Origin: Candidatus Omnitrophota bacterium | Lineage (GTDB): Bacteria > Omnitrophota > Gorgyraeia > Zapsychrales > Zapsychraceae | Length of the DNA stretch: 64,000 nt | Direction of reading: 5' to 3' | NCBI GenBank assembly: GCA_035292445.1 | Contig: DATDQB010000017.1 | Location: 55,051-119,050 of the forward strand | In this document: positions 9,222 through 54,488 of the stretch, in pieces | Layout of the letters: every line of letters begins with the position of its first letter | How positions within the stretch are numbered: the first letter of the stretch is position 1 | Notes under the pieces: generated by a model | The model's input: only the letters and a program-made list of their open reading frames with translations | Databases searched by the model: none | What the model was told of the DNA's origin: nothing | Position numbers and translations under genes: made by a program

Positions 9222-9223
9222 AG

Positions 9224-10230: not shown

Positions 10231-10253
10231 GTAAATACCCCTTTAAATGACAT

Positions 10254-39111: not shown

Positions 39112-41595
39112 ATGATGCGGCAATTACTTATATTAGCTTTACTATTTATATCTGTTAATTGGTCTCCATTACCGGCTTTCGCTCAAGAGGGCGACCGGGA
39201 ATTATTCCTGGTAGCTTCCAAAGCTTACGAGGACGGTTTTTATGATGTGGCCATCCGTTATATCGAGCAGCTTCTGAAAGATTATCCCAACACAGACAAA
39301 AAGATCCAGGCCAAGCTCCTTTTGGGCCAATGTTACTTTTTTAAAAGCCAATATTTGAAAGCCTATGATATCTTTAACGAATTGCTGGTATACACCGAAT
39401 TTAAGGACGCAACGCTTTTTTGGCTGGGGGAGACCTATCTTAAAGGCGCCGATTACAAACAGGCCGAGCGCCAGTACCGCGAGCTGGTCAGCTTCTATCC
39501 AACTTCCCTGTACACCCCGCAGGCCTATTATTCGCTGGGCTGGATTTATTTCGAACTAAACAACTATGCCCAAGCCAAAGAAATCTTCCAGAAACTCATC
39601 AATGATTTCCCCGACCATCCGCTAGGGGAAGACACGGCCTTTAAGATCGGCGAATGCGATTTTAATTCAAAAAATTATGAAGCTGCGATCTCTTATTTTA
39701 AGAACTTCCTTGAACGCTTTCCCAACACCACCCGCCAGGCGGAAGTGCATTTTTATATCGCCGAATCGTATTACTATCAAAACAACCCTCTTGAAGCGGT
39801 CACGTATTACGCCAAGGCAGCCGACGTCGCCTACGATAACAAACTGATCTTAATGGCCAAGGTGAGCCTCGGTTGGAGTTATCTGAAACTGGAAAAATAT
39901 CAGCTCTCCGAACAGCATTTTCAAGAAGCGTATGATTTTGCCAAAAGCAAAGGCATATTGACCGATGATGTGCTCTTGGGGCAGGCGAATTTGTATACAG
40001 AAACAAAAGAATATGAAAAAGCCCTGCAGGCGCATGACCAGCTGATCCAACAATTTCCCAACAGTCAAAGGATCGCCGACGCGTACTTAGGCAAGGCCAA
40101 CCTGCATTATCTGACGGGACAATATCCGCAGGCCATTCAAACCTATCAATCGCTCATCGAAAAGCTCAAGAACGACCCTTTGAAAAAAGAATTGCTGGAG
40201 AAGGCCTATTTTGGCCTGGCCTGGTCGCATCTTAAATCCGGCGACATTGACACCTCCATCAAAACCTTCGAGACCATCAGGACCGAAGCGAGCAACAATG
40301 TGGTGAAGATCAGCGCCCTGACGCAGATAGGCGACGCCTATCAGGACATCGGCGAATTTCAAAAGGCCATCCAGGTCTATGACCGGGTCCTCGAAGAATA
40401 CCCCAACAGCCCCTACACGGACTACGTGCAATACCGCCAAGGCATTGCCTTGTTGAAAATGGACAAGATCGATGCCGCCACGTTATCTTTCCAAAGCCTC
40501 CAGGCCAATTTTCCTAACAGTAAATACTTGACCGACATCAAATATTATCTGGCCGTGGCTTACTTCAAGAAAAACGATTGGGCCATGGCCAGCACCTATA
40601 TCAATGAATTTATTTTAAATTTGCCCAAAGATAACGAGTTTCTGGCGGAGGCCCATTATATCCTGGCTTTATCATTCTACAACCTGGAAGAATATAAAAA
40701 GGCCGAACAGGTCTTTGAAAAGATCATCAAAAATTTCCCTCAACAAAGAAACATGATCCAAAGCGCCGACATCTTTATCGCCAAATGCCAGTATAAAACA
40801 GGAGACGTCAAAGAGGCCCTGAAAAAATTCAAATTACTTATCCATACTTACCCGCAAACGGAAGTCGCCCAGGATGCCCTCCTTTGGCTGGGTGACCATT
40901 ATTTGGAAGCGGGAGAATATGATGCGGCGATCAGCCATTACCATGAATTCATCAAAGAATTCCCCGGCAGCGATAAGCTGGAGCTGGTTTATTATGAGCT
41001 GGGCCAAGCCTATCAGGCCCGTGGAGAATACGACAAGGCCATCAACATCCTCAAACAGATTCAACCCTTCAAAGACCGTGTGCTCTATGCCAAAGCGAGT
41101 TTGGCCATTGCCGATATTTTCTCTAAGGAACTGGATCCCCAATCCGCCATCGAGACGTATCAAAATATTATTGAAGGCTCTCCCGAATTCAAGCGCGACG
41201 CTTACGTGAAAATTGCCGATGTCCATAAGTCGACCAAACAGTTCTCCCAGGCCATCGAAGCCTACAGGGAAGCTTTAAAGGCCGAAAAAAAACACAGCAA
41301 GTTAAAAGACGTGGAATTGCAGTTTCAAATAGGCGATACATATGAACTGGCCAATCAGTCGGAAACAGCTATTCAGGAGTACCTAAAAATACCTTATCTC
41401 TACGTCAATGAAACGGTGTGGATCATCAAAGCGTACCTGCGCATCGCGCGGATTTTCGAAGACCATGAAAAATGGGAAGAAGCTGTACTGACGTACAAGA
41501 AAGTATTACAATACGAAACAGAAGAGCGCATCTTCGCTCAAGAGCGGTTGGATTGGATTAAAGAAAATACTTCCGCCGATATAACCAAGAATTAA
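39112..41595 (+). CDS. large secreted TPR-repeat protein (CpoB/YbgF-like repeats)
   Basis: Signal peptide MMRQLLILALLFISVNWSPLPAFAQEG, then more than 15 TPR-like units. Confidence 0.7.
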   Translation: MMRQLLILALLFISVNWSPLPAFAQEGDRELFLVASKAYEDGFYDVAIRYIEQLLKDYPNTDKKIQAKLLLGQCYFFKSQYLKAYDIFNELLVYTEFKDATLFWLGETYLKGADYKQAERQYRELVSFYPTSLYTPQAYYSLGWIYFELNNYAQAKEIFQKLINDFPDHPLGEDTAFKIGECDFNSKNYEAAISYFKNFLERFPNTTRQAEVHFYIAESYYYQNNPLEAVTYYAKAADVAYDNKLILMAKVSLGWSYLKLEKYQLSEQHFQEAYDFAKSKGILTDDVLLGQANLYTETKEYEKALQAHDQLIQQFPNSQRIADAYLGKANLHYLTGQYPQAIQTYQSLIEKLKNDPLKKELLEKAYFGLAWSHLKSGDIDTSIKTFETIRTEASNNVVKISALTQIGDAYQDIGEFQKAIQVYDRVLEEYPNSPYTDYVQYRQGIALLKMDKIDAATLSFQSLQANFPNSKYLTDIKYYLAVAYFKKNDWAMASTYINEFILNLPKDNEFLAEAHYILALSFYNLEEYKKAEQVFEKIIKNFPQQRNMIQSADIFIAKCQYKTGDVKEALKKFKLLIHTYPQTEVAQDALLWLGDHYLEAGEYDAAISHYHEFIKEFPGSDKLELVYYELGQAYQARGEYDKAINILKQIQPFKDRVLYAKASLAIADIFSKELDPQSAIETYQNIIEGSPEFKRDAYVKIADVHKSTKQFSQAIEAYREALKAEKKHSKLKDVELQFQIGDTYELANQSETAIQEYLKIPYLYVNETVWIIKAYLRIARIFEDHEKWEEAVLTYKKVLQYETEERIFAQERLDWIKENTSADITKN

Positions 41596-41623
41596 TCCGT
41601 AGAAAATATAAGGAGGAAGCCTC

Positions 41624-42277
41624 ATGGGTGGTATCTGGGAGATGAACGCATGGCATCTGATCAAAATTGGCGGCCCCATCATGGCCCCCATTCTGCTATG
41701 CTCGCTGTTTGCGTTGGGGATCGTCATCGAAAAACTGATTTATTTCGCTTCCATCAAAACAAACGTCCCTCAGCTCAAACAACAAGTCTTTGAGCTGGTG
41801 AAGAACAACAATATCAAAGAAGCGGTCCAGTTATGCGACCAGCATCACTCGCCCGTGGCCAAAATCCTTCGGGCCGGCCTGATTAAATACGGCTCTGCCC
41901 GGGAGGACATCAAAGAAAACATAGAAGATGTGAGCCTCTTTGAGGTTCCAAAACTGGAAAGCCGATTGAGCGCCCTGGCTACGATCGCGCATATTTCCCC
42001 GCTATTAGGTTTATTGGGAACTGTCACCGGCATGACCGCCAGTTTTCATACCATTCAAGTGCGGGCCGCCTCATTAAATCCGGTGACCCCGGGGGATTTG
42101 GCGGGAGGTATTGGAGAGGCCTTGATAACGACGGTGGCGGGTTTGATGGTTGCTATTCCGACCTTTGTCGCCTATAACTATTTTGTCAACCGCATCAATC
42201 ATTACGTCTTGGAAATGGAACGGGCCGCCACGGAACTGGTCAATTTTATGTGCCAAATTAGCGAAACGGGCAACTAA
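41624..42277 (+). CDS. MotA/TolQ/ExbB proton-channel family protein
   Basis: 217 aa with three TM segments and conserved ..LLGLLGTVTGM.. Confidence 0.85.
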   Translation: MGGIWEMNAWHLIKIGGPIMAPILLCSLFALGIVIEKLIYFASIKTNVPQLKQQVFELVKNNNIKEAVQLCDQHHSPVAKILRAGLIKYGSAREDIKENIEDVSLFEVPKLESRLSALATIAHISPLLGLLGTVTGMTASFHTIQVRAASLNPVTPGDLAGGIGEALITTVAGLMVAIPTFVAYNYFVNRINHYVLEMERAATELVNFMCQISETGN

Positions 42278-42287
42278 GAGGCCGCTG

Positions 42288-42692
42288 GTGAGATTCAAAA
42301 GACGCACAAAATTAGAATACGGGCTGGAGCAAATCGACATCGCCCCTATGATCGATGTCATTTTCCTGCTGCTTATTTTCTTTATGCTCTCATCGTCATT
42401 TACCTTTGAATCGGGCATCAATGTCAAACTGCCTAAAGCCGTCACCAGCGATGTGATCAAAGAAGAAAATTTTATCATTACGATCACGGGGGAAGATGTG
42501 ATCTATCTCAATGATAAGATCACGACGATTAAAGACTTAAAGAAAATCCTAGAAGGCGCTAAGGACAAAACACGCCCCATCCTGATCAAGGCCGACCGAA
42601 GGGCATCCGTTGGCCGGATCGTCGATGTTTGGGACCTCTGCAGGAATTTAGGCATTGAAAAGGTCAATATTGCCACCAACCAAGAAAATTAA
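42288..42692 (+). CDS. ExbD/TolR biopolymer transport protein
   Basis: GTG start; ..IDIAPMIDVIFLLLIFFM.. TM helix plus a periplasmic domain. Confidence 0.8.
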   Translation: MRFKRRTKLEYGLEQIDIAPMIDVIFLLLIFFMLSSSFTFESGINVKLPKAVTSDVIKEENFIITITGEDVIYLNDKITTIKDLKKILEGAKDKTRPILIKADRRASVGRIVDVWDLCRNLGIEKVNIATNQEN

Positions 42693-43132
42693 TGAATGTC
42701 CCGCTATTCAATATTAAAAATTTACCCAGCAAGTCTTTTCTTTTATCCACCCTCATTCATGCTTGCGTTTTCAACACCTTTATCATTGTCTGGCCGCTCC
42801 TTCCCGAAGCTCACAAGCCCAATATCATTTTTTTAGGTTCAATTTTACAGGCATCGGACATATTGATGCAAACCCTTCCACCCAGTCAGCAAAACGGCAA
42901 ACCACCAAGCGGCATTTTTTTTTCCGCGCCGCAAAAAAATTTATTTGAATCTGGATTAGAAAAGCCCGTTGCCAAAAAAGATTATACGCCCCAGCAGAAA
43001 AAAACCCTTAAATCCACCTACGAAGACACTGAGCAAGAAGAGCAAGGAAAGCAAGAAATACCGCTCAAAGACATCACCATTAACACGCATCTTGAACCGT
43101 ATAAACCGCTACGGTTAAAAACGCATGATTAA
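42692..43132 (+). CDS. TonB/TolA-like N-domain-only protein (TM helix with S-x3-H motif plus a Pro/Lys/Glu-rich spacer; no C-terminal TonB domain)
   Basis: ..LLSTLIHACVF.. then PPSQQNGKPPSG and a charged tail; 146 aa. Confidence 0.5.
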   Translation: MNVPLFNIKNLPSKSFLLSTLIHACVFNTFIIVWPLLPEAHKPNIIFLGSILQASDILMQTLPPSQQNGKPPSGIFFSAPQKNLFESGLEKPVAKKDYTPQQKKTLKSTYEDTEQEEQGKQEIPLKDITINTHLEPYKPLRLKTHD

Positions 43133-43391
43133 AATTGATTTGATTTTAGCGGTGGCCATTTATTGCTCCCTAAGCATCCTTCTTGTATTCGTGTTATGGG
43201 TATTCTATAATTATAATAAAGAAAAGCTCATCGGTAACGATTCGCTTCATTTGGAACAGTGCAATTTTTGTACCCATATTTTTTTTAATTACTTGGATAA
43301 AGAAATCGTCATATGCCCGTTATGTAAAAGTTATGTCCACACCGAAGGAGCCGCCGCAAAGAAGAATCACACGAAAGAGGGAAGAGGTTAA
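43125..43391 (+). CDS. small membrane-anchored zinc-ribbon protein
   Basis: N-terminal TM helix, then CNFC-x17-CPLC. Confidence 0.5.
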   Translation: MIKIDLILAVAIYCSLSILLVFVLWVFYNYNKEKLIGNDSLHLEQCNFCTHIFFNYLDKEIVICPLCKSYVHTEGAAAKKNHTKEGRG

Positions 43392-43393
43392 TC

Positions 43394-43729
43394 ATGCTGA
43401 AAACCTTGCAGCGTAATGAGAATGGTATTGTCTTCGTGGCCGTTTTGATGATAATCGTTGTAATGATGGCCGTAACCGTCGGCATTATTGGCTTAAACGT
43501 GAGCCAAGTCACTTTCGCTGAGCAAGAAATCAAAAGAATTAAGGCCGAGCTTCTGGCTGTAGGCGCTTTGGCCTATACCTTTGCCAACCAAACCACCACC
43601 TCCGCCGCCAGTTCCATCACGCTCTCCGAGACCTTAGATGGCATTAGTTATCAGATAGACGCCGACATCACTAGCCCCGGCACAGGCCCCAACGGCTCCA
43701 GCCCTCTGACCATCGTTGTAGACTATTAA
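43394..43729 (+). CDS. PilX-like type IV pilus minor protein (PilX_N domain)
   Basis: ..LQRNENGIVFVAVLMIIVVMMAV.. matches the PilX N-terminal consensus. Confidence 0.55.
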   Translation: MLKTLQRNENGIVFVAVLMIIVVMMAVTVGIIGLNVSQVTFAEQEIKRIKAELLAVGALAYTFANQTTTSAASSITLSETLDGISYQIDADITSPGTGPNGSSPLTIVVDY

Positions 43730-43788
43730 AAAGACGGCTTAGAGCTACATCAATTCTGGACCCTTTCAGCAAATAATCTCTTAAGCGA

Positions 43789-43817
43789 TTGACAAGGTAA
43801 GTTCATTATAGTTTAAT
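43789..43817 (+). promoter_or_regulatory. candidate promoter TTGACA-N17-TTTAAT, followed by an AGATAA-N8-TTATCT inverted repeat (43825-43844)
   Basis: Direct reading; AT-rich 160-nt intergenic region. Confidence 0.35.
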
Positions 43818-43889
43818 GAAGTTTAGATAAAAATATTATTATCTTAAATATTTGATTGGTTTTTGTAACTGAAAAAGGGGCAAGGGGAT

Positions 43890-44072
43890 ATGAAAAATCT
43901 GCTTGATGTGGACGATCTCGCCAGTTACTTAAAACTAAGAAAACAAACCATTTACAACTGGTTAAATCAACGAAAGATTTCGGGAATGAAAATCGGTGGT
44001 GTCTGGCGTTTCGACAAATCCGAAATCGATAAGTGGCTCAGGTCAAAAGCGCGAAAAGTGAGCAATCAATAA
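43890..44072 (+). CDS. excisionase/MerR-like helix-turn-helix DNA-binding protein
   Basis: 60 aa with ..LKLRKQTIYNWLNQRKISGMKIGGVWRF.. Confidence 0.65.
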   Translation: MKNLLDVDDLASYLKLRKQTIYNWLNQRKISGMKIGGVWRFDKSEIDKWLRSKARKVSNQ

Positions 44073-44075
44073 GCC

Positions 44076-45644
44076 ATGGCCGATGTCAAGAAAAAACAAT
44101 TAGGCATCTTCTGGGATTATCAAGGTTTATATTTTGTGGAAACCGAACAAGCCCAGGCAAAAAAAATCATTTCCATTCCTATAGCGGCTGAAATTCTCAA
44201 GAAGGCCGAAAACAACCCCTTGTCGCCTGATGGATCAAAAGTCATTACCACCATCCAGGATATATTAAGAAAAAATAAAATGACCAACAACGTGGTCCAT
44301 TTGTCTTTACCTTCGCGTGATATCATTTTTCGTTCCTTCCTCATCCCCTGGATGCAATCCAAAGAAATCAAAAGCGTAGTCGAGTTTGAAGCGACCAAAT
44401 ATATCCCTTTTACGCTCAAAGAATTAGCCTATTCATATCACGCCATGAATTTGATGGAAGGGAGCGCCCGGCGGTTACGGGTTGTTTTTGTTGCTATTAA
44501 GAAAGACACCCTGAGCCGCTATACCAAGCTCCTGGACGAAGCCGCCTTAAATGTCCAATTGGCCGAGCCGGCCCCTTTAAGTTTGATCCGCAGCCTAGTC
44601 CACAAAGAACGCCTTCAAACCAATCAAACCACCGCCATCATCGATAAAAGGGAAAAGATCGGAAAAATTGTCATCGTACAGGGAAATACGCCTCTGTTTG
44701 TCCGCGAATTCCCTTTGATGATTTCTTCCAATCCGGCTCTTGACGCCAGTGTCGAGGCGGCGGAACTTCTGCGGCTAACCAATGAAGTGCGCATTTCTTT
44801 GGACTATTTTAACCGTCAGGAAAAAAGCGTTAAAGTGGAAAAAATCATCTTCTTAAGCCCTAATGAACAAAATGAATTTGCCAAAGCATTGGAAGAAGAT
44901 TTGGAGATGTCTATGGAGATTATCAGCTGTTCCTCCATCTTGAATAATGACGAAATCAAAGACACGCATTTTATTAACGCCTATGGGGCCGGTCTGAAAA
45001 ATGACGTGAACCTGGAGATTAACTTCGATCTGTCTAAGGATAAACCTCAAACAGTCAGCATTTCACGCCAAACGTTCCAAAAGAACTTCAACATTAAAGA
45101 AGTCCTCCCAACAGCATTCACTTGTTTGCTGATTTCTTTCCTGGCTATCGGTTCATCGAAATTCTTTATAAACAAACAAAAAAATGAGTTAACAAACTTA
45201 TATCAGAGACTTGGGCCCTCAAAAGATATTTCTATCGATATGTTGAATTCTGGTAATGATGGCCTCCAAAAAAAACTTAATGCTTATAAAAGCATTCGTT
45301 TGAAAAGTGACATCACTTTCTTCCTAGCCGCGATCGCTCAACTACTCCCCGAGGGGGCTTGGGTCAACGGCGTCAACTTTTCCATTCAAGATATTCCGCA
45401 ACCACCAAGCACCGACCCACAAACCGCTGCGCCAAAACCGGCGTTCAAAACGACCATGGAACTTACGGGCTTGGCCTATTCGCCACAAAAGAAAGATCAA
45501 TTTCAACAAATCAACAGCCTTCTTCAAGCAATAAAGGACAACGAAAGATTTAATGAATATTTCCCAGATATTAAACTTGAAGATGTTCGTTCACAATTTG
45601 TCGAAGGATATGAAGTCACGGCATTTATAATAAGGTTTCAATAA
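44076..45644 (+). CDS. type IV pilus assembly PilM-PilN fusion protein
   Basis: N-terminal ~330 aa is an actin-like PilM. The C-terminal ~190 aa has a TM helix plus a PilN-like periplasmic domain. Confidence 0.65.
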   Translation: MADVKKKQLGIFWDYQGLYFVETEQAQAKKIISIPIAAEILKKAENNPLSPDGSKVITTIQDILRKNKMTNNVVHLSLPSRDIIFRSFLIPWMQSKEIKSVVEFEATKYIPFTLKELAYSYHAMNLMEGSARRLRVVFVAIKKDTLSRYTKLLDEAALNVQLAEPAPLSLIRSLVHKERLQTNQTTAIIDKREKIGKIVIVQGNTPLFVREFPLMISSNPALDASVEAAELLRLTNEVRISLDYFNRQEKSVKVEKIIFLSPNEQNEFAKALEEDLEMSMEIISCSSILNNDEIKDTHFINAYGAGLKNDVNLEINFDLSKDKPQTVSISRQTFQKNFNIKEVLPTAFTCLLISFLAIGSSKFFINKQKNELTNLYQRLGPSKDISIDMLNSGNDGLQKKLNAYKSIRLKSDITFFLAAIAQLLPEGAWVNGVNFSIQDIPQPPSTDPQTAAPKPAFKTTMELTGLAYSPQKKDQFQQINSLLQAIKDNERFNEYFPDIKLEDVRSQFVEGYEVTAFIIRFQ

Positions 45645-45648
45645 AGCC

Positions 45649-46290
45649 ATGGACATCCGAAAAGCCATAGAAAAACTCAACAGCATCGATGCCAAAGATT
45701 TCAAGAACATCGATTTCTCAAAATTAAAAGAATTCGACTTGGCGCGCATCAAAGAAGAGCTGGTTACAAAACCCAAATTGCTCATCAATACCATTTTTAT
45801 CTTTACGGCCATCGCCACCGCCATTCATAGCCTTTCAGGTTATCAACTAGAGGGGCGTACAACCAAAACGGAAGTAACTGAAATGAAGCAGCGGCTCAAC
45901 ATCCTTGAGCAGAACAGCGCCTTACAGGCGGAATATAACCAATTTTTGGCTGATTTTCCCGAATCCATCCCCAACAATCAAATGATCGGGAAGATTTCGG
46001 AATTTGCCGAGGCCTCCCATGTCAATATCATTTCGTTTTCGCCAACACAACCGTCACAACCACAAGAAACCGAATATACTTTAGAGTATGTTATCAGCTT
46101 AAACGTGAGCGTCCAATCTTATCAAGACCTGGTGGATTTTGTCCATGCTCTTGAAACATCAAATTACGTTTTGCGCATCGATAAATGGAACATCCACCCA
46201 CAAAGGACAATTGAATCAAAAAAAGGAAAAGGGGAGGTTCCTTTAGACGTGCACATGGAAATCATTTCCATCCATTTAAAAGATGTCTAA
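45649..46290 (+). CDS. type IV pilus assembly protein PilO-like
   Basis: 213 aa with one TM helix, a coiled coil and a periplasmic domain; sits in pilM-Q order. Confidence 0.6.
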   Translation: MDIRKAIEKLNSIDAKDFKNIDFSKLKEFDLARIKEELVTKPKLLINTIFIFTAIATAIHSLSGYQLEGRTTKTEVTEMKQRLNILEQNSALQAEYNQFLADFPESIPNNQMIGKISEFAEASHVNIISFSPTQPSQPQETEYTLEYVISLNVSVQSYQDLVDFVHALETSNYVLRIDKWNIHPQRTIESKKGKGEVPLDVHMEIISIHLKDV

Positions 46291-46816
46291 ACATTATCGT
46301 TCATGGCTTATTATTGGCTTAAGTTGCGTGCTGGTGCCTTGGGTTTTGGCCCAAGAAGAACCGCTGACTAAAATTTCACCAAAGAAAGAAGAAAATGCCC
46401 CTCAGATAAAACGCAATCCATTTACCTCTCAAATACCTGTCAAAGAAGAGATTACAGTGACGGAAGGAATAAAAAATGAAGATATCGAAATTGTCGAGGA
46501 AATACCGAAACCCATTACCGATATCATCCCCAACATGCCCGTGCAACCTATTGAGGTAAAGGTGAGTACTCCCAAACTAAACATTACCGGCCTTATCTGG
46601 AACTCAGACAGGCCTCAAGCCATCGTCAACGGCAACATTGTCGGGGTGGGGGATCGCCTTTTCGGCGTCCCATCGGATTCAGGGGAAGTGATCCCTGAAA
46701 TAACAATCGAAGACATTACCAATGAAGGCTTATTGGTGTCTTTCGCCAGTAAAACCATTGTCCTTAGACCTGTAATCGAAGAAACGCCTCAAGCAAAAAA
46801 GGAGAAAAAAAGATGA
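46283..46816 (+). CDS. type IV pilus assembly lipoprotein PilP-like
   Basis: Signal peptide plus a C-terminal beta domain; overlaps its neighbours. Confidence 0.55.
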   Translation: MSKHYRSWLIIGLSCVLVPWVLAQEEPLTKISPKKEENAPQIKRNPFTSQIPVKEEITVTEGIKNEDIEIVEEIPKPITDIIPNMPVQPIEVKVSTPKLNITGLIWNSDRPQAIVNGNIVGVGDRLFGVPSDSGEVIPEITIEDITNEGLLVSFASKTIVLRPVIEETPQAKKEKKR

Positions 46817-48309
46817 TAAGAAGATTAGTGACCATATTGAACGGGCTTGTGTTTCTAAGTTTTTGTCTAACAAGCTGCCCCTTGCACGCCGCCGATCTGA
46901 CCTTCGTGGACGAATACTTGTCCCCAGAGCTCTCCAAAAAGGTTTCCATGGATTTTCAAAACGCACAGCTGAATAACGTTTTAAAAATCCTGTCGCAGCA
47001 ATCGGGGATGAATTTCGTCGCCTCCGACACAATCGCCAATAAAGAAATCAACCTTTATTTGGACAATGTGCCCGTTTGGGAAGCGCTGGAGAGGATTCTC
47101 GAGGCCAACAGCCTCACCTACGAAGTGCGGCCCGGAAGCAACATTTTCATGGTGAAGGAGCTGAAGAAGGCAACCAAAGATTTGATCTCCCGCATCTACC
47201 AGTTGAACCACGCCACCGTTCCTTCTCATCTTCTCAATTCAACACTAACTTTTGATGAATCCCTCGGGTCCGATTCGTCCAGCTCATCCAGCGATTCTTC
47301 ATCGACGTCAGAAGATGCAGAGGGGATTGTGGCAGCCGTCAAAATGGTCTTATCAGAAGACGGCTCCGTTGTTGAAGACAGAAGAACCAATAGCCTCATT
47401 GTCACGGACTATCCGAGCCAATTTTCCCTGATTGAACAAACCATCGCCCGGCTGGATGTTCGCATCCCGCAAATACTGATCGAAGCTGAAATGCTGGACA
47501 TCACCAAAAACACAGCTGATTTATTGGGGGCCAAATTCAGCGGAGAGTTCTTCAAGCTGACCCAGGGCTCTTCAAAACAGGTCATATTTCCTTTCGATGA
47601 CAAAGATAACTCGCTCCCAGGGGGCCTCAACACATATCCGGACCTCAGTCTGGCCTCTTTTAAAGGTTTCAACGTTCTCATCCAATTCTTACGGACACAA
47701 ACAGACACCAAAAACCTTGCCAGGCCGCGTATCCTGACTCTTAATAACCAAACAGCCACCATTGCTATTAAAACAGATGAAGCCGTCGGAATTGAACAGA
47801 ATTCATCAGGAATTGGAGGATCGGAGTCTCAAACGATTGAGGCCGAACGGACAGAAACCGGCGTATTCCTAAAAGTGACCCCTTACGCAAATATCTACTC
47901 GCGTGAGATTACGATGGCCGTGGAACCGAAAGTCATTCAAGCCAGAACGGGAGCCACGTTTTCTGGCCAAAGCTTCAAAGACCCGGAAGAAAGAGGCTCA
48001 AAGAGTATCTTGCGTATCATGGATGGAGATACTATCATTATAGGAGGACTTTTGAGAACAGATATTACCGACATACGAACGAGCGTTCCGGTTATCAGCA
48101 AAATCCCTATTGTAGGCGCTGCTTTTCGCCACAAAGATAAAAAGGAAGATCAACGAGAGCTCATCGTCTTTTTAACGCCGCACATCGTGAAAGAGCATTT
48201 GGTTTCCAACGATCGGGACAAAGAGAGAAGCTTTGCCAGAGAACAAGACGCTCCGTCAGGATCCCGCTGGCAAACGATCAACGACAACCTTTCATTAATG
48301 GGCCGATAA
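46813..48309 (+). CDS. pilQ: type IV pilus secretin
   Basis: Secretin C-terminal domain (..IIIGGLL.., ..LIVFLTPHIV..). Confidence 0.85.
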   Translation: MIRRLVTILNGLVFLSFCLTSCPLHAADLTFVDEYLSPELSKKVSMDFQNAQLNNVLKILSQQSGMNFVASDTIANKEINLYLDNVPVWEALERILEANSLTYEVRPGSNIFMVKELKKATKDLISRIYQLNHATVPSHLLNSTLTFDESLGSDSSSSSSDSSSTSEDAEGIVAAVKMVLSEDGSVVEDRRTNSLIVTDYPSQFSLIEQTIARLDVRIPQILIEAEMLDITKNTADLLGAKFSGEFFKLTQGSSKQVIFPFDDKDNSLPGGLNTYPDLSLASFKGFNVLIQFLRTQTDTKNLARPRILTLNNQTATIAIKTDEAVGIEQNSSGIGGSESQTIEAERTETGVFLKVTPYANIYSREITMAVEPKVIQARTGATFSGQSFKDPEERGSKSILRIMDGDTIIIGGLLRTDITDIRTSVPVISKIPIVGAAFRHKDKKEDQRELIVFLTPHIVKEHLVSNDRDKERSFAREQDAPSGSRWQTINDNLSLMGR

Positions 48310-48313
48310 CGGT

Positions 48314-50083
48314 ATGCCTCGCTTAAAACTTGGTGAAATCTTAATCAAGCATGGCCTCATCAGCGAAGCCCAGCTCAAACAGGCCATGGAAACGCAGCAA
48401 AAAGAAAAAGGCCGCATTGGCGAGATCCTGATTAAAATGGGGGCCGTCAGCGAAGAAGACATGACCGCGACCCTGGGAGAGCAGCTGGGCCTTCCGTACT
48501 ATTCCTACACGGCCACGGAAAAAGCCGAACTCCTTAAACCCGCCTCCAATCAAAATCTTGAAAAAATAGTACCGGTTGACTTTGCGAAAAAAAACAATGT
48601 TTTGCCCCTGTCAAAAAATATAAACAATCTGATATGCGCCGTTGCGGATCCTTTAGATCTACTGCTGCAAGATAATTTGCGCCGCATCGTGGGCTGTGAC
48701 ATCCAATTGGTCATCGCCACCGAAACGAACATTCAAAAAGCCATTACCGATTTCTATTTTTCTGACAAACACCGCGACGACGGAAAAAAATCGTCCATGC
48801 TCAACCAGGCCGTTGAAAGCACTTACGCCCCCCAAAAATTTGAAGCTTCAGACACCGCAGCCGCCCCTAGAGAATCCGAAAATGTCAGCGATAAATCCGA
48901 TCTGAGCTTAGATAAACTCATCGAAAAAGCGGGCGAAGCCCCTGTCATCAAATTGGTCGACCTTATTATCCGTCAGGCGATTGATGAACGTGCCAGTGAT
49001 ATTCATATCGAACCCTTCGATAATAAAATCATCCTTCGTTACCGTATTGACGGCAACCTTTACACCATTCCTCCGCCGGCGCCCCATCTGCACTTGGCCA
49101 TCGTTTCCCGTATCAAAATTTTGGCCAAACTGGACATTGCGGAAAAACGTCTTCCGCAAGACGGGGCCATTTCGGTAAAACTGGAAGACCGCGTGGTTGA
49201 CATCCGTATTTCTACCGTGCCGACCGTCTGGGGAGAAAAAGTCGTCATGCGCCTTCTTGATAAAGGCGCCGTGAAATTGGAACTTTTTGGGTTGGGATTC
49301 GATCAAACACAAATCGATTGCCTGAAAAAAGCCCTTGCAAGACCTTATGGGCTCTTTTTCGTCACCGGCCCTACCGGCAGCGGTAAATCAACAACCCTTT
49401 ATTCCTGCTTAAATGAGACCATTGACCCCCGCGTCAACGTTGTCACGGTTGAAGACCCGGTCGAATATAAAATCGAAGGGATCAATCAAGTCGCCGTCAA
49501 GCCGGAAATTGGCCTGACATTTGCAACCGCCTTAAAGGCCTTCTTGCGCCAGGACCCTGACATCATTATGGTCGGCGAGGTGCGTGATTTGGAAACCGCT
49601 TCCATCTGCGTACGGGCTGCTTTAACAGGCCACTTTGTCTTAAGCACCCTGCACACCAATGACGCGGCCTCGGCCATCACGCGGCTTATTGATATCGGCA
49701 TTCCCAGCTATCTGTTGACCCCATCGCTGGTGCTCATCCTGGCCCAACGGCTCGCCCGGCGCCTTTGCCCGAAATGCAAAGAAGCCTACGAGCCAGACCC
49801 GGCCCAGCATGGCGGCATCAAATTCAAAAGTGATCTCATCTACCGGGCCAAGGGCTGCGAAGCTTGCAACAATTCGGGGTATAAAGGGCGCATCGTGGTG
49901 GCGGAAACATTGCTTGTTGATGATGAGATGAAAAAAATAATCAGCAAAGGGGCCACGGATCAAGAGATTAAAACTGCGGCCCGTAAAAATGGTATGACGA
50001 CCATATTTGATTCAGGCATCCGCCTCGTTGAACAGGGGTTTACCAGTTTTGAAGAAGTCGCAAGAGTCAGTGTAGACCAATAA
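48314..50083 (+). CDS. pilB: type IV pilus assembly ATPase (GspE family)
   Basis: Duplicated N-terminal T2SSE_N domain, Walker A GPTGSGKST, Asp and His boxes and a tetracysteine motif. Confidence 0.9.
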   Translation: MPRLKLGEILIKHGLISEAQLKQAMETQQKEKGRIGEILIKMGAVSEEDMTATLGEQLGLPYYSYTATEKAELLKPASNQNLEKIVPVDFAKKNNVLPLSKNINNLICAVADPLDLLLQDNLRRIVGCDIQLVIATETNIQKAITDFYFSDKHRDDGKKSSMLNQAVESTYAPQKFEASDTAAAPRESENVSDKSDLSLDKLIEKAGEAPVIKLVDLIIRQAIDERASDIHIEPFDNKIILRYRIDGNLYTIPPPAPHLHLAIVSRIKILAKLDIAEKRLPQDGAISVKLEDRVVDIRISTVPTVWGEKVVMRLLDKGAVKLELFGLGFDQTQIDCLKKALARPYGLFFVTGPTGSGKSTTLYSCLNETIDPRVNVVTVEDPVEYKIEGINQVAVKPEIGLTFATALKAFLRQDPDIIMVGEVRDLETASICVRAALTGHFVLSTLHTNDAASAITRLIDIGIPSYLLTPSLVLILAQRLARRLCPKCKEAYEPDPAQHGGIKFKSDLIYRAKGCEACNNSGYKGRIVVAETLLVDDEMKKIISKGATDQEIKTAARKNGMTTIFDSGIRLVEQGFTSFEEVARVSVDQ

Positions 50084-50105
50084 TTATTGTTAGAAGGAGT
50101 ACGAA

Positions 50106-51347
50106 TTGCCCAAATTTTCCTATACAGCAAAAGACGCGTCCGGTAAAACCATCAAAGACGTCATGGATGCCCCTAGTCAAAACACAGTGGTGGAGCGCCT
50201 GCAAAAAAAAGAGCTCTTTGTTATCAATATTAATGAGCTGTCTTTCTCTTCTCCGGCGGCCAAAAGAGCCCTTGCCAAAAAGAAAAAAACAAAACGCTTC
50301 ACTCATAAAAAGGTCAAACTCGGCGACTTGCTCACCTTTGCGCGCCAATTGGCCACCATGCTGGAAGCCGGTGTTTCCATGATCCGAAGCCTGGATGTTA
50401 TCTGTTCCCAAATTCAAAGCGAACAATTCCATAAGGTCGCAAGAAAAATACGTGATGATGTGGAACAAGGGGGCGCTTTAAGTAACGCCTTGTCCAATCA
50501 TCCCAAGGTTTTTAACCAATTCTGGACTAGTTTGATCGAGGTTGGAGAGGCCTCAGGAACGATTCCCGTAGTTTTAAATAAGCTGACTTTCTATCTGGAA
50601 CAACAAGCAAAATTCAGATCAACCATCATTTCGGGGTTGATCTATCCGGCCATTCTCTTTACTGTTTCCATGGGAGCGGTCGCCTTTTTTGCCTTATTCG
50701 TAGGGCCGCGGTTTGAAAGTATTTTTGAATCCATGGACGTGGACTTGCCTGTAATCACCGTTATTTTACTGGCGGTCTTCAAATTCATTAAAAGCAACAT
50801 TTTGTTCTTAATTGCCGGCGTTGCTTTATCTATTTTTCTATTTCGTAAATACATAAAAACATACCATGGCCGACTGCAATGGGAGAAATTCATGTTTGCT
50901 TTGCCCCAAGCCGGGGAAGTGTACCGTTTGATTATCGTTGAACGCTTCGCATCACAAATGGCCATTTTGATTGACTCCGGAGTTCCCATTCTTTATGCTT
51001 TGGACATTACAGAGCGGCTCGTTGACAACAACACCTGTGCACTGATTGTTAATGATATCAAGGAAGCGGTCAGGGAAGGGGTTCTTTTGGCCGATCCTAT
51101 GGAAAAAAGCGACTTCTTTCCGGCCATGGCTGTTCAAATGGTGCAGGTGGGGGAGGAAACAGGAGAGCTCAGTAAGATGTTAAAGCATGTTTCCGCTTTT
51201 TACCAGGATCACATCGAAACATTCATGTCCCGTTTTGCAACGATTGTCGAACCTTTTATGCTGGTTTTTATGGGGGCGATCATCGGCACCATCGTCTTGG
51301 CTATGTTCCTTCCCATGTTTAACATTGCTCAGCTGGGAGGGGGATAA
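50106..51347 (+). CDS. pilC: type IV pilus inner-membrane platform protein (GspF family)
   Basis: Two T2SSF domains, 413 aa. Confidence 0.9.
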   Translation: MPKFSYTAKDASGKTIKDVMDAPSQNTVVERLQKKELFVININELSFSSPAAKRALAKKKKTKRFTHKKVKLGDLLTFARQLATMLEAGVSMIRSLDVICSQIQSEQFHKVARKIRDDVEQGGALSNALSNHPKVFNQFWTSLIEVGEASGTIPVVLNKLTFYLEQQAKFRSTIISGLIYPAILFTVSMGAVAFFALFVGPRFESIFESMDVDLPVITVILLAVFKFIKSNILFLIAGVALSIFLFRKYIKTYHGRLQWEKFMFALPQAGEVYRLIIVERFASQMAILIDSGVPILYALDITERLVDNNTCALIVNDIKEAVREGVLLADPMEKSDFFPAMAVQMVQVGEETGELSKMLKHVSAFYQDHIETFMSRFATIVEPFMLVFMGAIIGTIVLAMFLPMFNIAQLGGG

Positions 51348-51452
51348 GGCTAAAAACTCCCTCTAGCGAAAATACTTCAAAAAATACTATTCAAACCACT
51401 CGATTTTCGCTAAATTTATTATATAATAAAGGCGTAGATAGAGCTTGGCTGT

Positions 51453-51483
51453 TTGACATGGGGCACCCTAATATGCTATACAT
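51453..51483 (+). promoter_or_regulatory. sigma70-type promoter TTGACA-N18-TATACA driving the riboswitch-pilin transcript
   Basis: Direct reading. Confidence 0.45.
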
Positions 51484-51494
51484 TATGTAGGATA

Positions 51495-51600
51495 GGTTAT
51501 TGTCCAAGGGTAAACCATTCGAAAGAGTGGGGCACAAAGCTAAAGGGCCCGGGAGTCCAAGTCAGATATTGGATGGGGGGGCAGCCAGCTACCAATAATC
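51495..51600 (+). ncRNA. cyclic-di-GMP-I (GEMM) riboswitch aptamer
   Basis: AGGGUAAACCAUUCGAAAGAGUGGGGCACAAAGCU matches the Vc2 GEMM-I core AGGGCAAACCAUUCGAAAGAGUGGGACGCAAAGCC at 31 of 35 positions. It has a GNRA (GAAA) loop in P2, and a P1 stem ggttattg / caataatc closes the domain. Confidence 0.8.
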
Positions 51601-51611
51601 GAACCAAAATG

Positions 51612-51643
51612 CCTATTCTACGAATGTGGAATAGGTTTTTTAT
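51612..51643 (+). terminator. intrinsic terminator (expression platform of the riboswitch): cctattc-N10-gaatagg + TTTTTT
   Basis: Direct reading; lies 45 nt upstream of the pilin SD. Confidence 0.55.
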
Positions 51644-51689
51644 TAGGGTGAATTTAGTGTAAAACTTTAAATAAAAGGAGTTAGCAAAC

Positions 51690-52106
51690 ATGAAACTCAA
51701 TCGCAGAAGTGGCTTTACCTTACTTGAAATTATCATTGTTATCATTATTGTAGGTGTTCTTGCTTCTTTGGCTTTACCTCGATTCTTCAGTACAGTCGAA
51801 TTCTCCAGATCAACAGAAGCACTTACATCCATGTCCACCGTTCGTCAATCCATTGAACGATGCTACATAGCATCAAACAATAACTATTCCTCATGCATCA
51901 TTGGTGCTATTGACGTTGAAAACCCAGGAATCTCACCAGGGGCTCACTTTACCTACGTGGTCACCGTAGCGCCTACTACTTTCCGAATTGTGGCCCAAAG
52001 AAACGCTGTTAATGCTGGGGACGGCACATCAACAATTAGCCTTGGAGGCAGTTCGGGTGCTGGTGTTGCTAGAAGCGGTAGTGGTGTATTCGTTGGTATC
52101 AAATAA
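51690..52106 (+). CDS. type IVa major pilin (prepilin N-methylation site G|FTLLE)
   Basis: MKLNRRSGFTLLEIIIVIIIVGVLASLALP..; strong SD aaaaggag. Confidence 0.85.
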   Translation: MKLNRRSGFTLLEIIIVIIIVGVLASLALPRFFSTVEFSRSTEALTSMSTVRQSIERCYIASNNNYSSCIIGAIDVENPGISPGAHFTYVVTVAPTTFRIVAQRNAVNAGDGTSTISLGGSSGAGVARSGSGVFVGIK

Positions 52107-52133
52107 CCCGTTCTTTACAACGGCTTAAGTTTA

Positions 52134-52176
52134 CAGAAACATCGAAGCTTTGACTTTCAAGGCTTCGATGTTTCTG
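52134..52176 (+). terminator. perfect 15-bp hairpin (cagaaacatcgaagc / gcttcgatgtttctg) after the first pilin gene; no U-tract
   Basis: Direct reading. Confidence 0.5.
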
Positions 52177-52208
52177 TGTAAGGCTACGAAAGAAGGGGTT
52201 GATGAACC

Positions 52209-52640
52209 GTGATTTTTTCCCATTTTAAAAAGAAATTCGCTCCCCAAGGCTTTACCTTAATAGAAGTAGCCGTCACCATCATACTTATAGGGGTGGTCGT
52301 GTCACTGGCCTTACCGCAATTCTCCATCACGACCAAACGCTCCCGCTCTTCCGAAGGCGTCCAAATCCTCTCTGCCATATGGAGAGCCCAGAACTTATAC
52401 ACTTTTGAAAATGGTTCGGCAGCTGGCAACTTAACCGATCTCGACATCGAAATTCCATCGCCTCTGACTAATTTCAACACACCTGTTTTATATACAACCG
52501 ATGGACAAACCGCTTATATTGTCGACAATAATAGCGATTATCGCTTGTACATCGATACTACCGGTACCATTACCTGTGATGACACCCCGGGCTTGGCCGG
52601 CATATGTGCGAAGATGGCTTTTGCCGCCTACCCGTACTAG
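52209..52640 (+). CDS. type IV pilin-like protein 2
   Basis: ..QGFTLIEVAVTIILIGVVVSLALP.. Confidence 0.75.
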   Translation: MIFSHFKKKFAPQGFTLIEVAVTIILIGVVVSLALPQFSITTKRSRSSEGVQILSAIWRAQNLYTFENGSAAGNLTDLDIEIPSPLTNFNTPVLYTTDGQTAYIVDNNSDYRLYIDTTGTITCDDTPGLAGICAKMAFAAYPY

Positions 52641-52656
52641 GCAAGAAAAGGCACAA

Positions 52657-53043
52657 ATGAATTGGATAGTTCGTAAAAAAGGGTTTAGCTTGATAGAAGT
52701 GATAACGGCCCTTCTCGTTGTTGCCGCTATTACCGGTATTGCCCTTCCTAGATTTACGCTGCAGCTGGAACGAACAAAAAGCGCGGAAGCCGTTCATATC
52801 CTGGAATCCATTTACAACGCCCAACGGGCCTACTTTTATGAATATCAGGCCTATGCGAGCGCGCTCTCCGCCTTGGATGTCACCGTGCCGGCGCCGGAGG
52901 GTTTCAACGCCCCAACAGCCGCTTCGAGCGATCCCATTGCCAGCATCGCGAGCAAAAGCGGAAATTATACGTTAAGAATAGATAGCGCCGGGGCCTTGAG
53001 CTGTGTCGGTACCGGTACCATCTGCACCCAATTGGGATATTAA
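52657..53043 (+). CDS. type IV pilin-like protein 3
   Basis: ..KGFSLIEVITALLVVAAITGIALP... Start is at MNWIV; the upstream part of the track ORF overlaps pilin 2. Confidence 0.75.
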   Translation: MNWIVRKKGFSLIEVITALLVVAAITGIALPRFTLQLERTKSAEAVHILESIYNAQRAYFYEYQAYASALSALDVTVPAPEGFNAPTAASSDPIASIASKSGNYTLRIDSAGALSCVGTGTICTQLGY

Positions 53044-53058
53044 AATGAAGGAGAAACG

Positions 53059-53469
53059 ATGAGATCAAGAACCGGTTTTACTTTAGTAGAATTAATGGTC
53101 GTGGTCGTCATTATCGGTATCCTGGCCAGCTTTGCGCTGCCCCAATATCAAAAGGCGGTGCGGAAAGCTCATGAACGCGACGCGGTTATCCAACTCACCT
53201 CGTTGCATGCCGCCAATATCATGTATGAAGCAAAACAAGACGCCTATTTGGCAGGGAACCCTTTAAACTTAGCTCAAATCAATAGCGGCCTTAACCTGAA
53301 TATCATAGCCAATGATATGACGTACTCCTATACCAGCACGGTCGCAACAGCCTACACGGCAACGGCCGCATGGACTGATTTTACTGTTCGAGTTAATCAG
53401 ACGCCTATTGCTGCTGGCACCAACCCTTGCTGTTCAGCCGGTACTTGTCCGACTTTACCGGCCTGTTAA
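53059..53469 (+). CDS. type IV pilin-like protein 4
   Basis: MRSRTGFTLVELMVVVVIIGILASFALP.. Confidence 0.75.
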   Translation: MRSRTGFTLVELMVVVVIIGILASFALPQYQKAVRKAHERDAVIQLTSLHAANIMYEAKQDAYLAGNPLNLAQINSGLNLNIIANDMTYSYTSTVATAYTATAAWTDFTVRVNQTPIAAGTNPCCSAGTCPTLPAC

Positions 53470-53478
53470 AGACGCGAT

Positions 53479-53823
53479 ATGCTAAAAATTCTTAAAAAAG
53501 AGGGGTTCGCATCTATCGTGGAAGTGATCGTGGCTTCCATTATCTTTCTGGTGACAGCCTTCGGGATATTTGCCGCTATCTCCATGCTACGGCCCCAAGG
53601 AACGACGTCCATCAAACGGCTCGAAGCCGTTTTGGCCGGGAAACGCGTCATCGATGAAATAAGGGCGGATGTCTACGGCAACCTTTGGGCCAGCGGTAGC
53701 CCTTTAGACACTGGGACGCTTTACACTCAAACCATCGGCTCTGTTACGGTCAATTATTATACCGCGGATGTCCCGAACCTTCCTTTAAGGAAATTGTATA
53801 TGAATGTTTCCTATCCCGATTAA
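53479..53823 (+). CDS. minor pseudopilin (PilV/GspI-like)
   Basis: ..EGFASIVEVIVASIIFLV.. Confidence 0.6.
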   Translation: MLKILKKEGFASIVEVIVASIIFLVTAFGIFAAISMLRPQGTTSIKRLEAVLAGKRVIDEIRADVYGNLWASGSPLDTGTLYTQTIGSVTVNYYTADVPNLPLRKLYMNVSYPD

Positions 53824-53828
53824 GGGTT

Positions 53829-54488
53829 ATGGCAAATATGATCAAGATGACAACACAAAAAGGGTTAACGTTGACGGAACTGCTGGTGGCGTCTTTTTTA
53901 ATGGGCATCGTGATGGTCGGGATTGCCGGCTTTAGCGTAACGATCAAACGCATGCAGGATACAACGGATAAGCAGGCGATTTTGGCCATTCAAACGATAG
54001 CCGCCATGACCCATATGGAAAGGAATATTTCAAGGACCATCGGGGGTCAAAGCGATCAGGGTTATGCCTCCGGTAATGCGGGCACGCCAAACCGTGCTTA
54101 TTGGTCTTTCCGGCAGGACCCTTCGAACACGCCATACAATACTTCCGATGATACCTGGCGGATCTATTTCCGCAGAACGACCGGAGGCGCCCCAACATTC
54201 GAATTAAGAACCTGTGTCCAGCCGGCAGGGGCCGGAGCCGCTCAAGGGCCCATCCCAAGTTTCCTAGGAAGTGACCCGTGCGGCCAGCCAAACATCCAAA
54301 GAGTTATCAATAAAATTCAAAGTTTTTCCATTGTCCAAACAGTCAATAATTCGCCTTCGACTCTGGACTTTTATTATACAGCAACCATCACCGCCCGCTT
54401 CAACCCTTCGGCAGCGGCTGAGCCTATTGATAATCCTGATTATACCTTAAGCACCCGCGTTCACGCGCCGGGCCACAGCTGGAATTAA
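53829..54488 (+). CDS. minor pilin PilW-like
   Basis: ..KGLTLTELLVASFLMGIVMVGIAG.. Confidence 0.6.
   Translation: MANMIKMTTQKGLTLTELLVASFLMGIVMVGIAGFSVTIKRMQDTTDKQAILAIQTIAAMTHMERNISRTIGGQSDQGYASGNAGTPNRAYWSFRQDPSNTPYNTSDDTWRIYFRRTTGGAPTFELRTCVQPAGAGAAQGPIPSFLGSDPCGQPNIQRVINKIQSFSIVQTVNNSPSTLDFYYTATITARFNPSAAAEPIDNPDYTLSTRVHAPGHSWN

Follow-up and report, generated by a model that had tools for sequence, protein, structure and literature searches.

A TolQR-Type Module with a Minimal TonB-Like Anchor Adjoins the Type IVa Pilus Genes of Omnitrophota

The window analyzed here is a 64,000-nucleotide stretch of a Candidatus Omnitrophota bacterium genome (GenBank assembly GCA_035292445.1, contig DATDQB010000017.1, positions 55,051 to 119,050 of the forward strand). 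Within it, genes for a periplasmic tetratricopeptide repeat (TPR) protein, an ExbB/TolQ protein, an ExbD/TolR protein, a short TonB/TolA-like anchor (TonBs) and a small zinc-ribbon membrane protein (ZnR) lead into a minor-pilin-like gene (p111) and a type IVa pilus operon. The gene arrangement is a real and conserved one that has not been described before; literature searches turned up no paper on a Ton/Tol-pilus cluster of Omnitrophota. The conserved adjacency suggests that the motor serves the pilus machine. The reading favored here, tentatively and by analogy with the PocA-PocB-TonB3 system of Pseudomonas aeruginosa, is that the first unit may be an accessory inner-membrane motor/stator or scaffold of that machine, with proton drive optional. 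A Tol-like envelope system that works independently of the pilus is only slightly less likely.

Conservation of the Motor-Pilus Arrangement

The arrangement was traced in two samples. The first consists of 20 Omnitrophota species genomes reached through ExbB, together with five metagenome contigs obtained by exact look-up; the second, independent of it, consists of 80 metagenome loci fetched with a PilM-N alignment led by a divergent sequence and scanned with home-made hidden Markov models. All 20 species genomes and all five contigs share the order TPR, ExbB, ExbD, TonBs, ZnR, p111, (HTH), PilMN, O, P, Q, B, C, pilins, where HTH is a helix-turn-helix protein, and nearly all of the 80 fetched loci do so as well. 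Junctions were counted over 93 non-redundant loci, designated by L numbers where one must be told from another. ExbD is followed by p111 and the pil genes in every locus that carries ExbD (63 of 63, one with a 2.5-kb insertion), ZnR and p111 are adjacent in 69 of 70, and p111 is linked to PilMN in 77 of 77. Identity over the 25 fully covered loci runs from 58 to 97% for UvrA and from 18 to 95% for PilM-N, so the clade is deep. Co-conservation of the Tol-like and pil genes in relatives, proposed as a test in the earlier note on this DNA, thus holds, but the test is a weak one because the flanking genes are syntenic too.

Three marks set the motor-pilus junction apart. The first is that it is unbroken, the ZnR-p111 junction being disturbed in none of 70 loci as against five of 39 for the uvrA-TPR junction (Fisher p = 0.005, over loci that are not phylogenetically independent). 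The uvrA-TPR disturbances are three insertions and two loci, L009 and L011, with other genes upstream; L009 has lost uvrA there and keeps TPR through pilMN, where its contig ends. The second mark is a promoter-like site at the TPR gene, and the third is that p111, a pilus gene, stands at the end of the motor unit.

The assignment of p111 draws on its family and its behavior across loci. PF14341 (PilX_N) matches 12 of 21 family members with a best E of 2.6e-6, the window protein itself reaching only E = 0.028, and there is a weak N-terminal match to GspK. A single-sequence AlphaFold model of low confidence (predicted local distance difference test score, pLDDT, 66) gives a long N-terminal helix followed by strands. 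Foldseek against the Protein Data Bank (PDB) returned nothing significant for this model, the sole near full-length alignment being to a type II secretion pseudopilin (TM-score 0.49, E = 1.9). In L153/L154 a p111-like gene precedes HTH-pilMN and itself has no motor ahead of it, and in L158 such a gene sits among minor pilins behind a cyclic di-GMP (c-di-GMP) riboswitch. The evolutionary rate of p111 covaries with that of the Pil proteins and not with that of ExbB/ExbD. By these sequence criteria p111 is a pilus gene; it is also the last gene of the motor unit, at a median distance of 9 bp from ZnR.

Several related loci depart from the common layout within or beside the motor unit. In intermediate and deep relatives, ZnR and p111 are separated by a gene for a 66-68-aa DUF2582 winged-helix protein. 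L134/L143, which represent one deep lineage, carry, at 7683-9530, a very divergent ExbB-ExbD pair that retains the aspartate of ExbD and is not accompanied by anchor or ZnR; a winged-helix gene, p111, HTH and pilMN follow. In L011 a minus-strand gene (9026-11236) is inserted between the ExbD and anchor genes; its product, secreted and 736 aa long, combines YadA-head repeats with a Peptidase_S74 chaperone domain. This insertion splits the motor unit, and anchor, ZnR and p111 stay on the pilus side.

Components of the Motor Unit

Gene identities were taken from the open reading frame (ORF) listing, translation, Pfam and NCBIfam. By these means all the Tol-like and pil genes named in the earlier note are found at or near the positions it gave them. 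The motor unit and the pilus operon that follows it are laid out as follows.

39112-41595, + strand, periplasmic TPR protein, 827 aa (Pfam, NCBIfam)
41624-42277, + strand, ExbB/TolQ, 217 aa (PF01618)
42288-42692, + strand, ExbD/TolR, 134 aa, GTG start (PF02472)
42692-43132, + strand, short TonB/TolA-like anchor TonBs, 146 aa (S-x-x-x-H helix, alignments)
43125-43391, + strand, zinc-ribbon membrane protein ZnR, 88 aa (four-Cys motif)
43394-43729, + strand, PilX_N-type minor-pilin-like protein p111, 111 aa (PF14341 in the family)
43890-44072, + strand, excisionase/MerR-type HTH protein, 60 aa (TIGR01764)
44076-45644, + strand, PilM-PilN fusion, 522 aa (PF11104, TIGR01175)
45649-46290, + strand, PilO/GspM-like protein (PF04350, PF10741)
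46283-46816, + strand, PilP-like protein (position; faint T2SSB match)
46813-48309, + strand, PilQ secretin with N-terminal STN/N0 domain (Secretin, Secretin_N, STN, TIGR02515)
48314-50083, + strand, PilB assembly ATPase with MshEN-type N-terminus (T2SSE, MshEN)
50106-51347, + strand, PilC platform protein (T2SSF, 1e-54)

The TPR protein has a signal peptide (MMRQLLILALLFISVNWSPLPAFA) with no lipobox and matches Pfam TPR_6 (7e-87) and YfiO (3e-36), in keeping with the secreted 828-aa protein with CpoB-like repeats described before, one residue shorter and with repeats of the TPR_6/YbgF type. Its score against the tol_pal_ybgF model TIGR02795 is 251 bits (cutoff 90), but this is summed over 10 repeat stretches of the 827 residues. 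Against the full-length CpoB model NF008068 the protein scores 102 bits where 383 are required, and against the PorW/SprE model of the type IX secretion system (T9SS) a sub-threshold 158 bits (cutoff 250). Orthologs are 41-61% identical.

ExbB matches PF01618 with E = 4e-31; its best NCBIfam model is TolQ (TIGR02796), at 112 bits below the cutoff of 221. More than 120 homologs are 75-87% identical to it, and every source named among them is Omnitrophota. ExbD matches PF02472 with E = 2e-29 and scores 67 bits against the TolR model TIGR02801, below the cutoff of 127. Aligned with Escherichia coli reference sequences, ExbB shows the motifs LGTVTGM in its second transmembrane segment (TM2) and GIGEAL in TM3, as in TolQ, and the window ExbD keeps the transmembrane aspartate within APMIDVIF, as in TolR and ExbD. 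The essential aspartate is D23 in TolR and D25 in ExbD.

The anchor is unusually short. Its gene overlaps the ExbD stop codon and encodes one N-terminal transmembrane helix with S19-x-x-x-H23 (STLIH), followed by a Pro-, Lys-, Glu- and Gln-rich spacer. It has no match in Pfam or NCBIfam, the TonB C-terminal domain PF03544 included, so the earlier description of a protein with only an SxxxH helix and a Pro/Lys/Glu spacer stands. Orthologs are 26-40% identical and keep the histidine, a KPxFIFLGxIL segment after the helix, KxxxKSTF and a C-terminal PYxPL peptide, which reads PYKPL in the window. Residues H23, P43, F47-L52, K103, K107, P136, Y137, P139 and L140 are invariant in alignments, H23 in both of two (17 and 20 sequences), and AlphaFold run with the 20-sequence alignment predicts a helix at 8-33 only, with disorder after it. 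An anchor profile searched against 1.84 billion cluster representatives gathers 352 members, and nearly all of the 150 listed members are 135-165 aa long and match end to end. The short anchors are thus a real family rather than a truncated gene call. The family, of about 352 clusters and with no TonB C-terminal domain, is undescribed. The missing domain also makes a classical TonB-dependent receptor an unlikely target.

Deep relatives have at the anchor position a protein of 207-230 aa (L139, L141, L151, L156) with an extra conserved C-terminal region; homology to the short anchor could be demonstrated for no more than its N-terminal part (E = 1.5e-4). A TonB C-terminal domain was suspected in these longer proteins from an SSGNLEADL stretch that resembles it by eye, and was rejected after Pfam, a profile search of solved-structure sequences and hhalign against E. 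coli TonB returned nothing. Likewise, an apparent anchor-ZnR fusion, the 231-aa family member P0149, looks like a read-through.

ZnR consists of one transmembrane helix and a cytoplasmic four-Cys ribbon, QCPYCT...CPRCKSY, that is conserved in 23 orthologs; its best domain match is weak (Prok-RING_1, E = 0.004). The gene overlaps that of the anchor by 8 nt in the window, the median anchor-ZnR gap across loci is -4 bp, and its position is always between the anchor and the PilX-like gene.

The Pilus Genes

The type IVa pilus set recognized through Pfam and NCBIfam comprises PilM, N, O, P, the Q secretin, B, C and pilins with prepilin motifs. The HTH protein, encoded 3 nt upstream of pilMN, scores 45 bits against TIGR01764 (cutoff 28.8), is annotated with PF12728 (HTH_17) in relatives and, at 80-86% identity there, ranks as the block's most conserved protein. 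The PilM-PilN fusion matches PF11104 (PilM_2, 2e-13), TIGR01175 (pilM) and the Amuc_1101 family, and its orthologs are 28-44% identical. In 54-57 loci the PilP-like protein keeps its place between PilO and PilQ. PilQ matches Secretin (2e-34) and STN (1.5e-6), and PilB matches T2SSE (1e-136), MshEN (7e-16) and the c-di-GMP motif model NF053729 (64 bits).

TolB, Pal, a TonB-dependent receptor, PilT and PilD were not found in the 64-kb window, 10 kb of its right flank or about 6 kb of its left flank, and TolB and Pal were not found in the 20-kb related loci either. The absence of TolB, Pal and pilT reported before therefore extends to about 16 kb of flanking DNA. The locus had also been called a complete type IV pilus locus, which claims too much, as no prepilin peptidase is found. 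PilD and PilT may be encoded elsewhere in the genome.

Predicted Transcription Units

Sequence features divide the block into three predicted transcription units: TPR to p111, HTH-pilMN-O-P-Q-B-C, and the riboswitch-controlled pilins. A promoter-like site at 39078..39105 (+) consists of TTGCAA, 16 nt and TG-n-TATAAT (10 of 12 positions, with the TG) and ends 6 nt before the TPR start codon, so that the TPR mRNA is probably leaderless. The extended -10 element, CTGnTATAAT, is kept in most related loci at 6-11 nt before the TPR ATG, which argues that the motor unit is separate from uvrA. Upstream of HTH-pilMN, at 43789..43817 (+), stands a second promoter-like site with TTGACA, 17 nt and TTTAAT. 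Strongly conserved, it recurs as TTGACA-N17-T(C/T)TAAT, a motif like TTGACAAAGTAAGTCTATTATAGTCTAAT, in the interval from p111 to HTH/pilM; most loci have it among the roughly 74 that were scanned. Its spacer (within 43789-43830) is conserved as well, as AAGTAAGTCTATTATAG, and this conservation together with that of the HTH protein suggests an autoregulated operator.

The third unit begins with a c-di-GMP-I riboswitch (RF01051, 53.2 bits, gathering score 35) directly upstream of the first pilin gene, and comprises the following features.

51499-51596, + strand, c-di-GMP-I riboswitch aptamer (Rfam RF01051)
51611-51636, + strand, terminator-like hairpin with T-run to 51645 (11-bp stem, then TTTTTATT)
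51690-52106, + strand, type IV pilin, probably major (N_methyl, 4e-7)
52209-52640, + strand, pilin (N_methyl, Pilin_GH)
52651-53043, + strand, pilin (N_methyl)
53059-53469, + strand, pilin (N_methyl, 1e-8)
53479-53823, + strand, minor-pilin-like protein with GFASIVE motif (translation; no Pfam match)
53829-54488, + strand, minor-pilin-like protein (N_methyl, 2e-5)

The terminator hairpin is the probable expression platform of the riboswitch. A riboswitch occupies the same position in L014, L022, L024 and L109 and lies upstream of minor pilins in L158; none was found in L016, L088, L100, L113, L123 and the deep group. With the riboswitch ahead of the pilins and the MshEN domain on PilB, both pilin supply and the assembly ATPase would be under c-di-GMP control. 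Such a pairing is an ordinary feature of c-di-GMP-controlled type IVa systems; it concerns how the pilus is regulated, not what the motor does.

These features qualify the picture of one co-directional block with no intervening terminators. The genes are indeed on one strand, and no terminator intervenes as far as pilC, but the riboswitch and terminator hairpin precede the pilins. Every gene from 12.9 to 64 kb of the window is on the plus strand, so co-directionality is not particular to the motor-pilus block, and two conserved promoter-like sites split it. Independent transcription units, which had been named as a ground for giving up a joint system, are in part predicted from the promoter-like sites and the riboswitch; yet the motor unit ends with a pilus gene.

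Comparison with Known Motor Systems

P. aeruginosa needs the ExbB/ExbD/TonB homologs PocA, PocB and TonB3 to assemble its type IVa pili and to place them at the pole (PMC5285504), and an interaction of TonB3 with the N0 domain of PilQ was proposed by the authors of that study (PMC5285504). TonB2 of Acinetobacter baumannii affects pilus-dependent transformation (PMC8811193). By analogy, PocAB-TonB3 is the closest functional precedent for the Omnitrophota module, which is tied to the pilus by genomic linkage. Both have an ExbB/ExbD/TonB-type trio, the role of Poc is in the type IVa pilus and not in nutrient uptake, and the Omnitrophota PilQ carries an STN/N0 domain. The Omnitrophota anchor, however, lacks a TonB C-terminal domain, and its module further comprises the large TPR and zinc-ribbon proteins. 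The Poc genes are scattered in the genome and are not known to belong to a pil cluster, and the Poc system also controls flagellar placement.

The resemblance to Tol-Pal carries the main alternative, in which an Omnitrophota Tol-type system for outer-membrane tethering, constriction or general envelope upkeep stands beside a pilus operon in a stable region, the two being independent neighbors by descent. This is a serious contender, if not quite the first choice. The best-scoring NCBIfam models for the motor proteins are TolQ and TolR, the anchor has an S-x-x-x-H helix as TolA does, the TPR protein has CpoB/YbgF-type repeats whose summed score exceeds the cutoff of the YbgF/CpoB repeat model, though the protein stays below that of the full-length CpoB model, and the 75-87% identity of ExbB in more than 120 homologs is housekeeping-like. 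Against it, the TolQ and TolR equivalog cutoffs are missed, neither TolB nor Pal lies nearby, and two parts of TolA, its long helical domain II and globular domain III, are missing from the anchor. The TPR protein, first in its operon and 827 aa long, also differs from CpoB, which has about 260 aa.

With ExbB-ExbD-TonB systems the module shares its Pfam domains, the order ExbB-ExbD-anchor, the S-x-x-x-H motif (S16/H20 in TonB) and a Pro/Lys/Glu spacer. It differs from them in that TonB_C (PF03544) is absent, only the C-terminal PYxPL peptide being left, and in that no TonB-dependent receptor gene lies nearby.

A likeness to the Agl/Glt gliding systems had been pointed out in the earlier note. 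It is apt insofar as, in AglRQS/Glt of Myxococcus xanthus, a TolQR-type motor accompanied by TonB-like and TPR proteins is reused for a surface/motility function. One TonB-like Glt protein has a cytoplasmic zinc-ribbon domain, whereas the Omnitrophota zinc ribbon is a separate small protein. Part by part the likeness breaks down: no Glt outer-membrane or periplasmic component is among the genes annotated in the window, and the Glt TonB-like proteins retain the TonB_C that the Omnitrophota anchor lacks. PocAB-TonB3 is closer.

A related alternative is that the module energizes some other surface process, such as uptake through an unrecognized receptor, export or handling of the giant surface proteins for which Omnitrophota are known, or Agl/Glt-style gliding or adhesion, with the pil genes as bystanders. 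A non-canonical anchor does imply a non-canonical partner, the TPR protein has its sub-threshold similarity to PorW/SprE (158 against 250 bits), the contig also carries a giant gene of more than 5,600 aa, and a YadA-type adhesin is inserted in the module of L011. This alternative is nevertheless improbable, as none of about 90 loci has a Glt-type, T9SS or receptor gene within or next to the block, and the pil genes are its only constant envelope-function neighbors.

Possible Coupling between Motor and Pilus

A number of observations weigh against a pilus role for the module, and they are gathered here. The first concerns gene order. panC, aspDH and uvrA upstream and rsmE, PMT and recA downstream keep the same order in most loci. 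Adjacency is therefore the default, and by itself no proof of a functional link. The synteny may reflect plain inheritance and counts for independent neighbors, although it leaves standing that the pil junction is never broken while the uvrA junction is, and that the motor operon closes with a pilus gene.

Second, the conserved site ahead of HTH/pilM indicates that the pil operon has its own start, and separate conserved promoter-like sites for the TPR unit and the pil operon are what independent systems would have. Third, two distant loci of the PilM-N type have no module at the corresponding position, which holds lipoate genes in L140 and a gene for a BNR-repeat protein in L153/L154; such same-type pilus loci again favor independence. 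L158 was considered as a further module-less locus and set aside, since its contig ends just upstream of the minor-pilin genes. The STN/N0 domain of PilQ was also tried as a marker of the motor module, and it is present both with and without the module. In Verrucomicrobiota a TPR gene lies upstream of ExbB-ExbD, and TPR plus ExbBD may thus be an older, self-standing module.

Fourth, the motor and Pil proteins do not covary in evolutionary rate. Pairwise distances were corrected for UvrA distance, a crude test in which some proteins are saturated and aspDH is the single control gene. ExbB and ExbD covary with each other at 0.79, whereas values for ExbB/ExbD against the Pil proteins lie between -0.22 and 0.33, near zero. 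The Pil proteins covary among themselves at 0.16-0.59, and the aspDH control also covaries with them. The absence of motor-Pil covariation counts toward an independent Tol-type system.

The last point is the loss of the ExbD transmembrane aspartate. It is replaced in 12 of 61 orthologs (L023, L093, L101, L112, L113, L116, L117, L127, L141, L142, L151, L156), always by asparagine and each time by one G-to-A change; a rough tree distributes these cases over about nine separate lineages, and the pil genes stay conserved. Reading frames at these loci are intact, and the anchor histidine and C-terminal motif are retained. In the more diverged asparagine lineages the TM3 glutamate of ExbB is neutralized as well and ExbB/ExbD scores drop when compared with those of UvrA and PilB at that locus; in the older ones ExbB/ExbD evolve faster. 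With the aspartate lost in about one-fifth of lineages and the pil genes intact, the pili cannot depend on proton coupling by the module, which argues against an obligatory motor-pilus coupling. The same losses are a poor fit with an important housekeeping Tol motor, since about nine such changes are hard to reconcile with one. That the replacement is always asparagine suggests, as far as sequence can tell, selection for a neutral look-alike and a locked or static complex rather than plain decay.

The proposal that a proton-motive-force motor is coupled to the pilus or secretin machinery, rather than there being two systems, accordingly survives in part: linkage and a shared pilus gene speak for it, the missing covariation and the aspartate losses against it.

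Proposed Role of the Module

The accessory pilus role favored here could work as follows. ExbB and ExbD would form a proton-driven stator, to which the 146-aa anchor would bind through its S-x-x-x-H helix. A disordered tether of about 100 residues would span the periplasm and present the C-terminal PYxPL peptide, which may dock, through strand addition or as a bound peptide, on either of two candidate partners: the 827-aa TPR protein encoded in the unit or the PilQ N0/STN domain. The docked complex would help to place, assemble or gate the secretin and the alignment subcomplex, with the zinc-ribbon protein as a putative cytoplasmic adaptor. In the one-fifth or so of lineages that have lost the proton-binding aspartate, the stator would act only as a static scaffold. 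All physical contacts in this scheme, and its effect on pili, are ones that we infer.

A bolder version is possible but doubtful. It would make the module a dedicated, co-inherited stator accessory of type IVa pili across a deep Omnitrophota clade, with the TonB-like partner cut down to an anchor, a disordered tether and a docking peptide. Gating, placement or retraction could then be proton-driven with no PilT in the locus, and the asparagine would be a motor-to-scaffold switch. If it were true, this would be the first Poc-like motor-pilus link written into gene order.

For twenty years genetics in Pseudomonas, Xylella and Acinetobacter has tied TonB-type proteins to type IV pili, yet no mechanism has come of it. 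A lineage that keeps a linked motor, a stripped tether and the pil genes together offers a compact candidate set: the anchor C-terminal peptide, the TPR protein, the zinc-ribbon protein and PilQ N0. Short S-x-x-x-H anchors like the one in this locus make up a new family of about 352 clusters, and the repeated change from aspartate to asparagine in ExbD is a natural experiment on a stator unable to bind protons. Should the two systems be independent, the finding shrinks to a stable Omnitrophota gene order and a minimal Tol-like system.

Other Features of the Window and of Related Loci

The block is bordered by the following genes.

36265-39063, + strand, uvrA (ORF listing, Pfam/NCBIfam)
from 54488, + strand, rsmE, PMT_2/TPR membrane protein, recA, recX, alaS, hisDBH (gene map)

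About 25 genes from panC to recA (window 28000-60000), mostly functionally unrelated, keep their order across about 90 loci with UvrA identity down to 58%, and gene order in this Omnitrophota clade seems unusually stable. The remainder of the window is occupied by housekeeping genes, among them murB, ispG/H, fab, arg, dap, rplM/rpsI and panC.

Among 60 Verrucomicrobiota loci (L026-L085) with about 30% ExbB identity, a large TPR gene lies upstream of ExbB-ExbD-ExbD, and in L050 (5647-18837), the locus that was annotated, genes for a VWA protein and a CT398-like zinc-ribbon protein follow the ExbD genes. A pilus link in this phylum was considered because six of the 60 loci have two PilT-like ATPases about 6 kb downstream, and was judged too loose.

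Membrane proteins with a TPR C-terminus and weak PMT/PMT_2 (GT-C glycosyltransferase) matches are encoded at 55218-57020, after rsmE, and at 11138-12823 (-) of the window. Relatives carry such PMT/TPR proteins within or next to the motor unit, between TPR and ExbB in L018 (8130-9974) and between uvrA and TPR in L023 (5531-7384). From their sequences they may be envelope or pilin glycosyltransferases.

At the left edge of the window, frame 2 is open from base 1 to 3673; the visible 1,214 aa have no Pfam match and contain a repeated segment, DPAMLGEE..PD.RRQT..RDEAM. The gene call on the source contig, of more than 5,600 aa with dehydrogenase, KR and HAD domains, ends at about 1994 and is followed by a 561-aa product, which places the left window edge inside or just after a giant Omnitrophota gene. 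Finally, MoaE, ThiF and Rhodanese domains are fused in one 538-aa protein at 4819-6435 (-).

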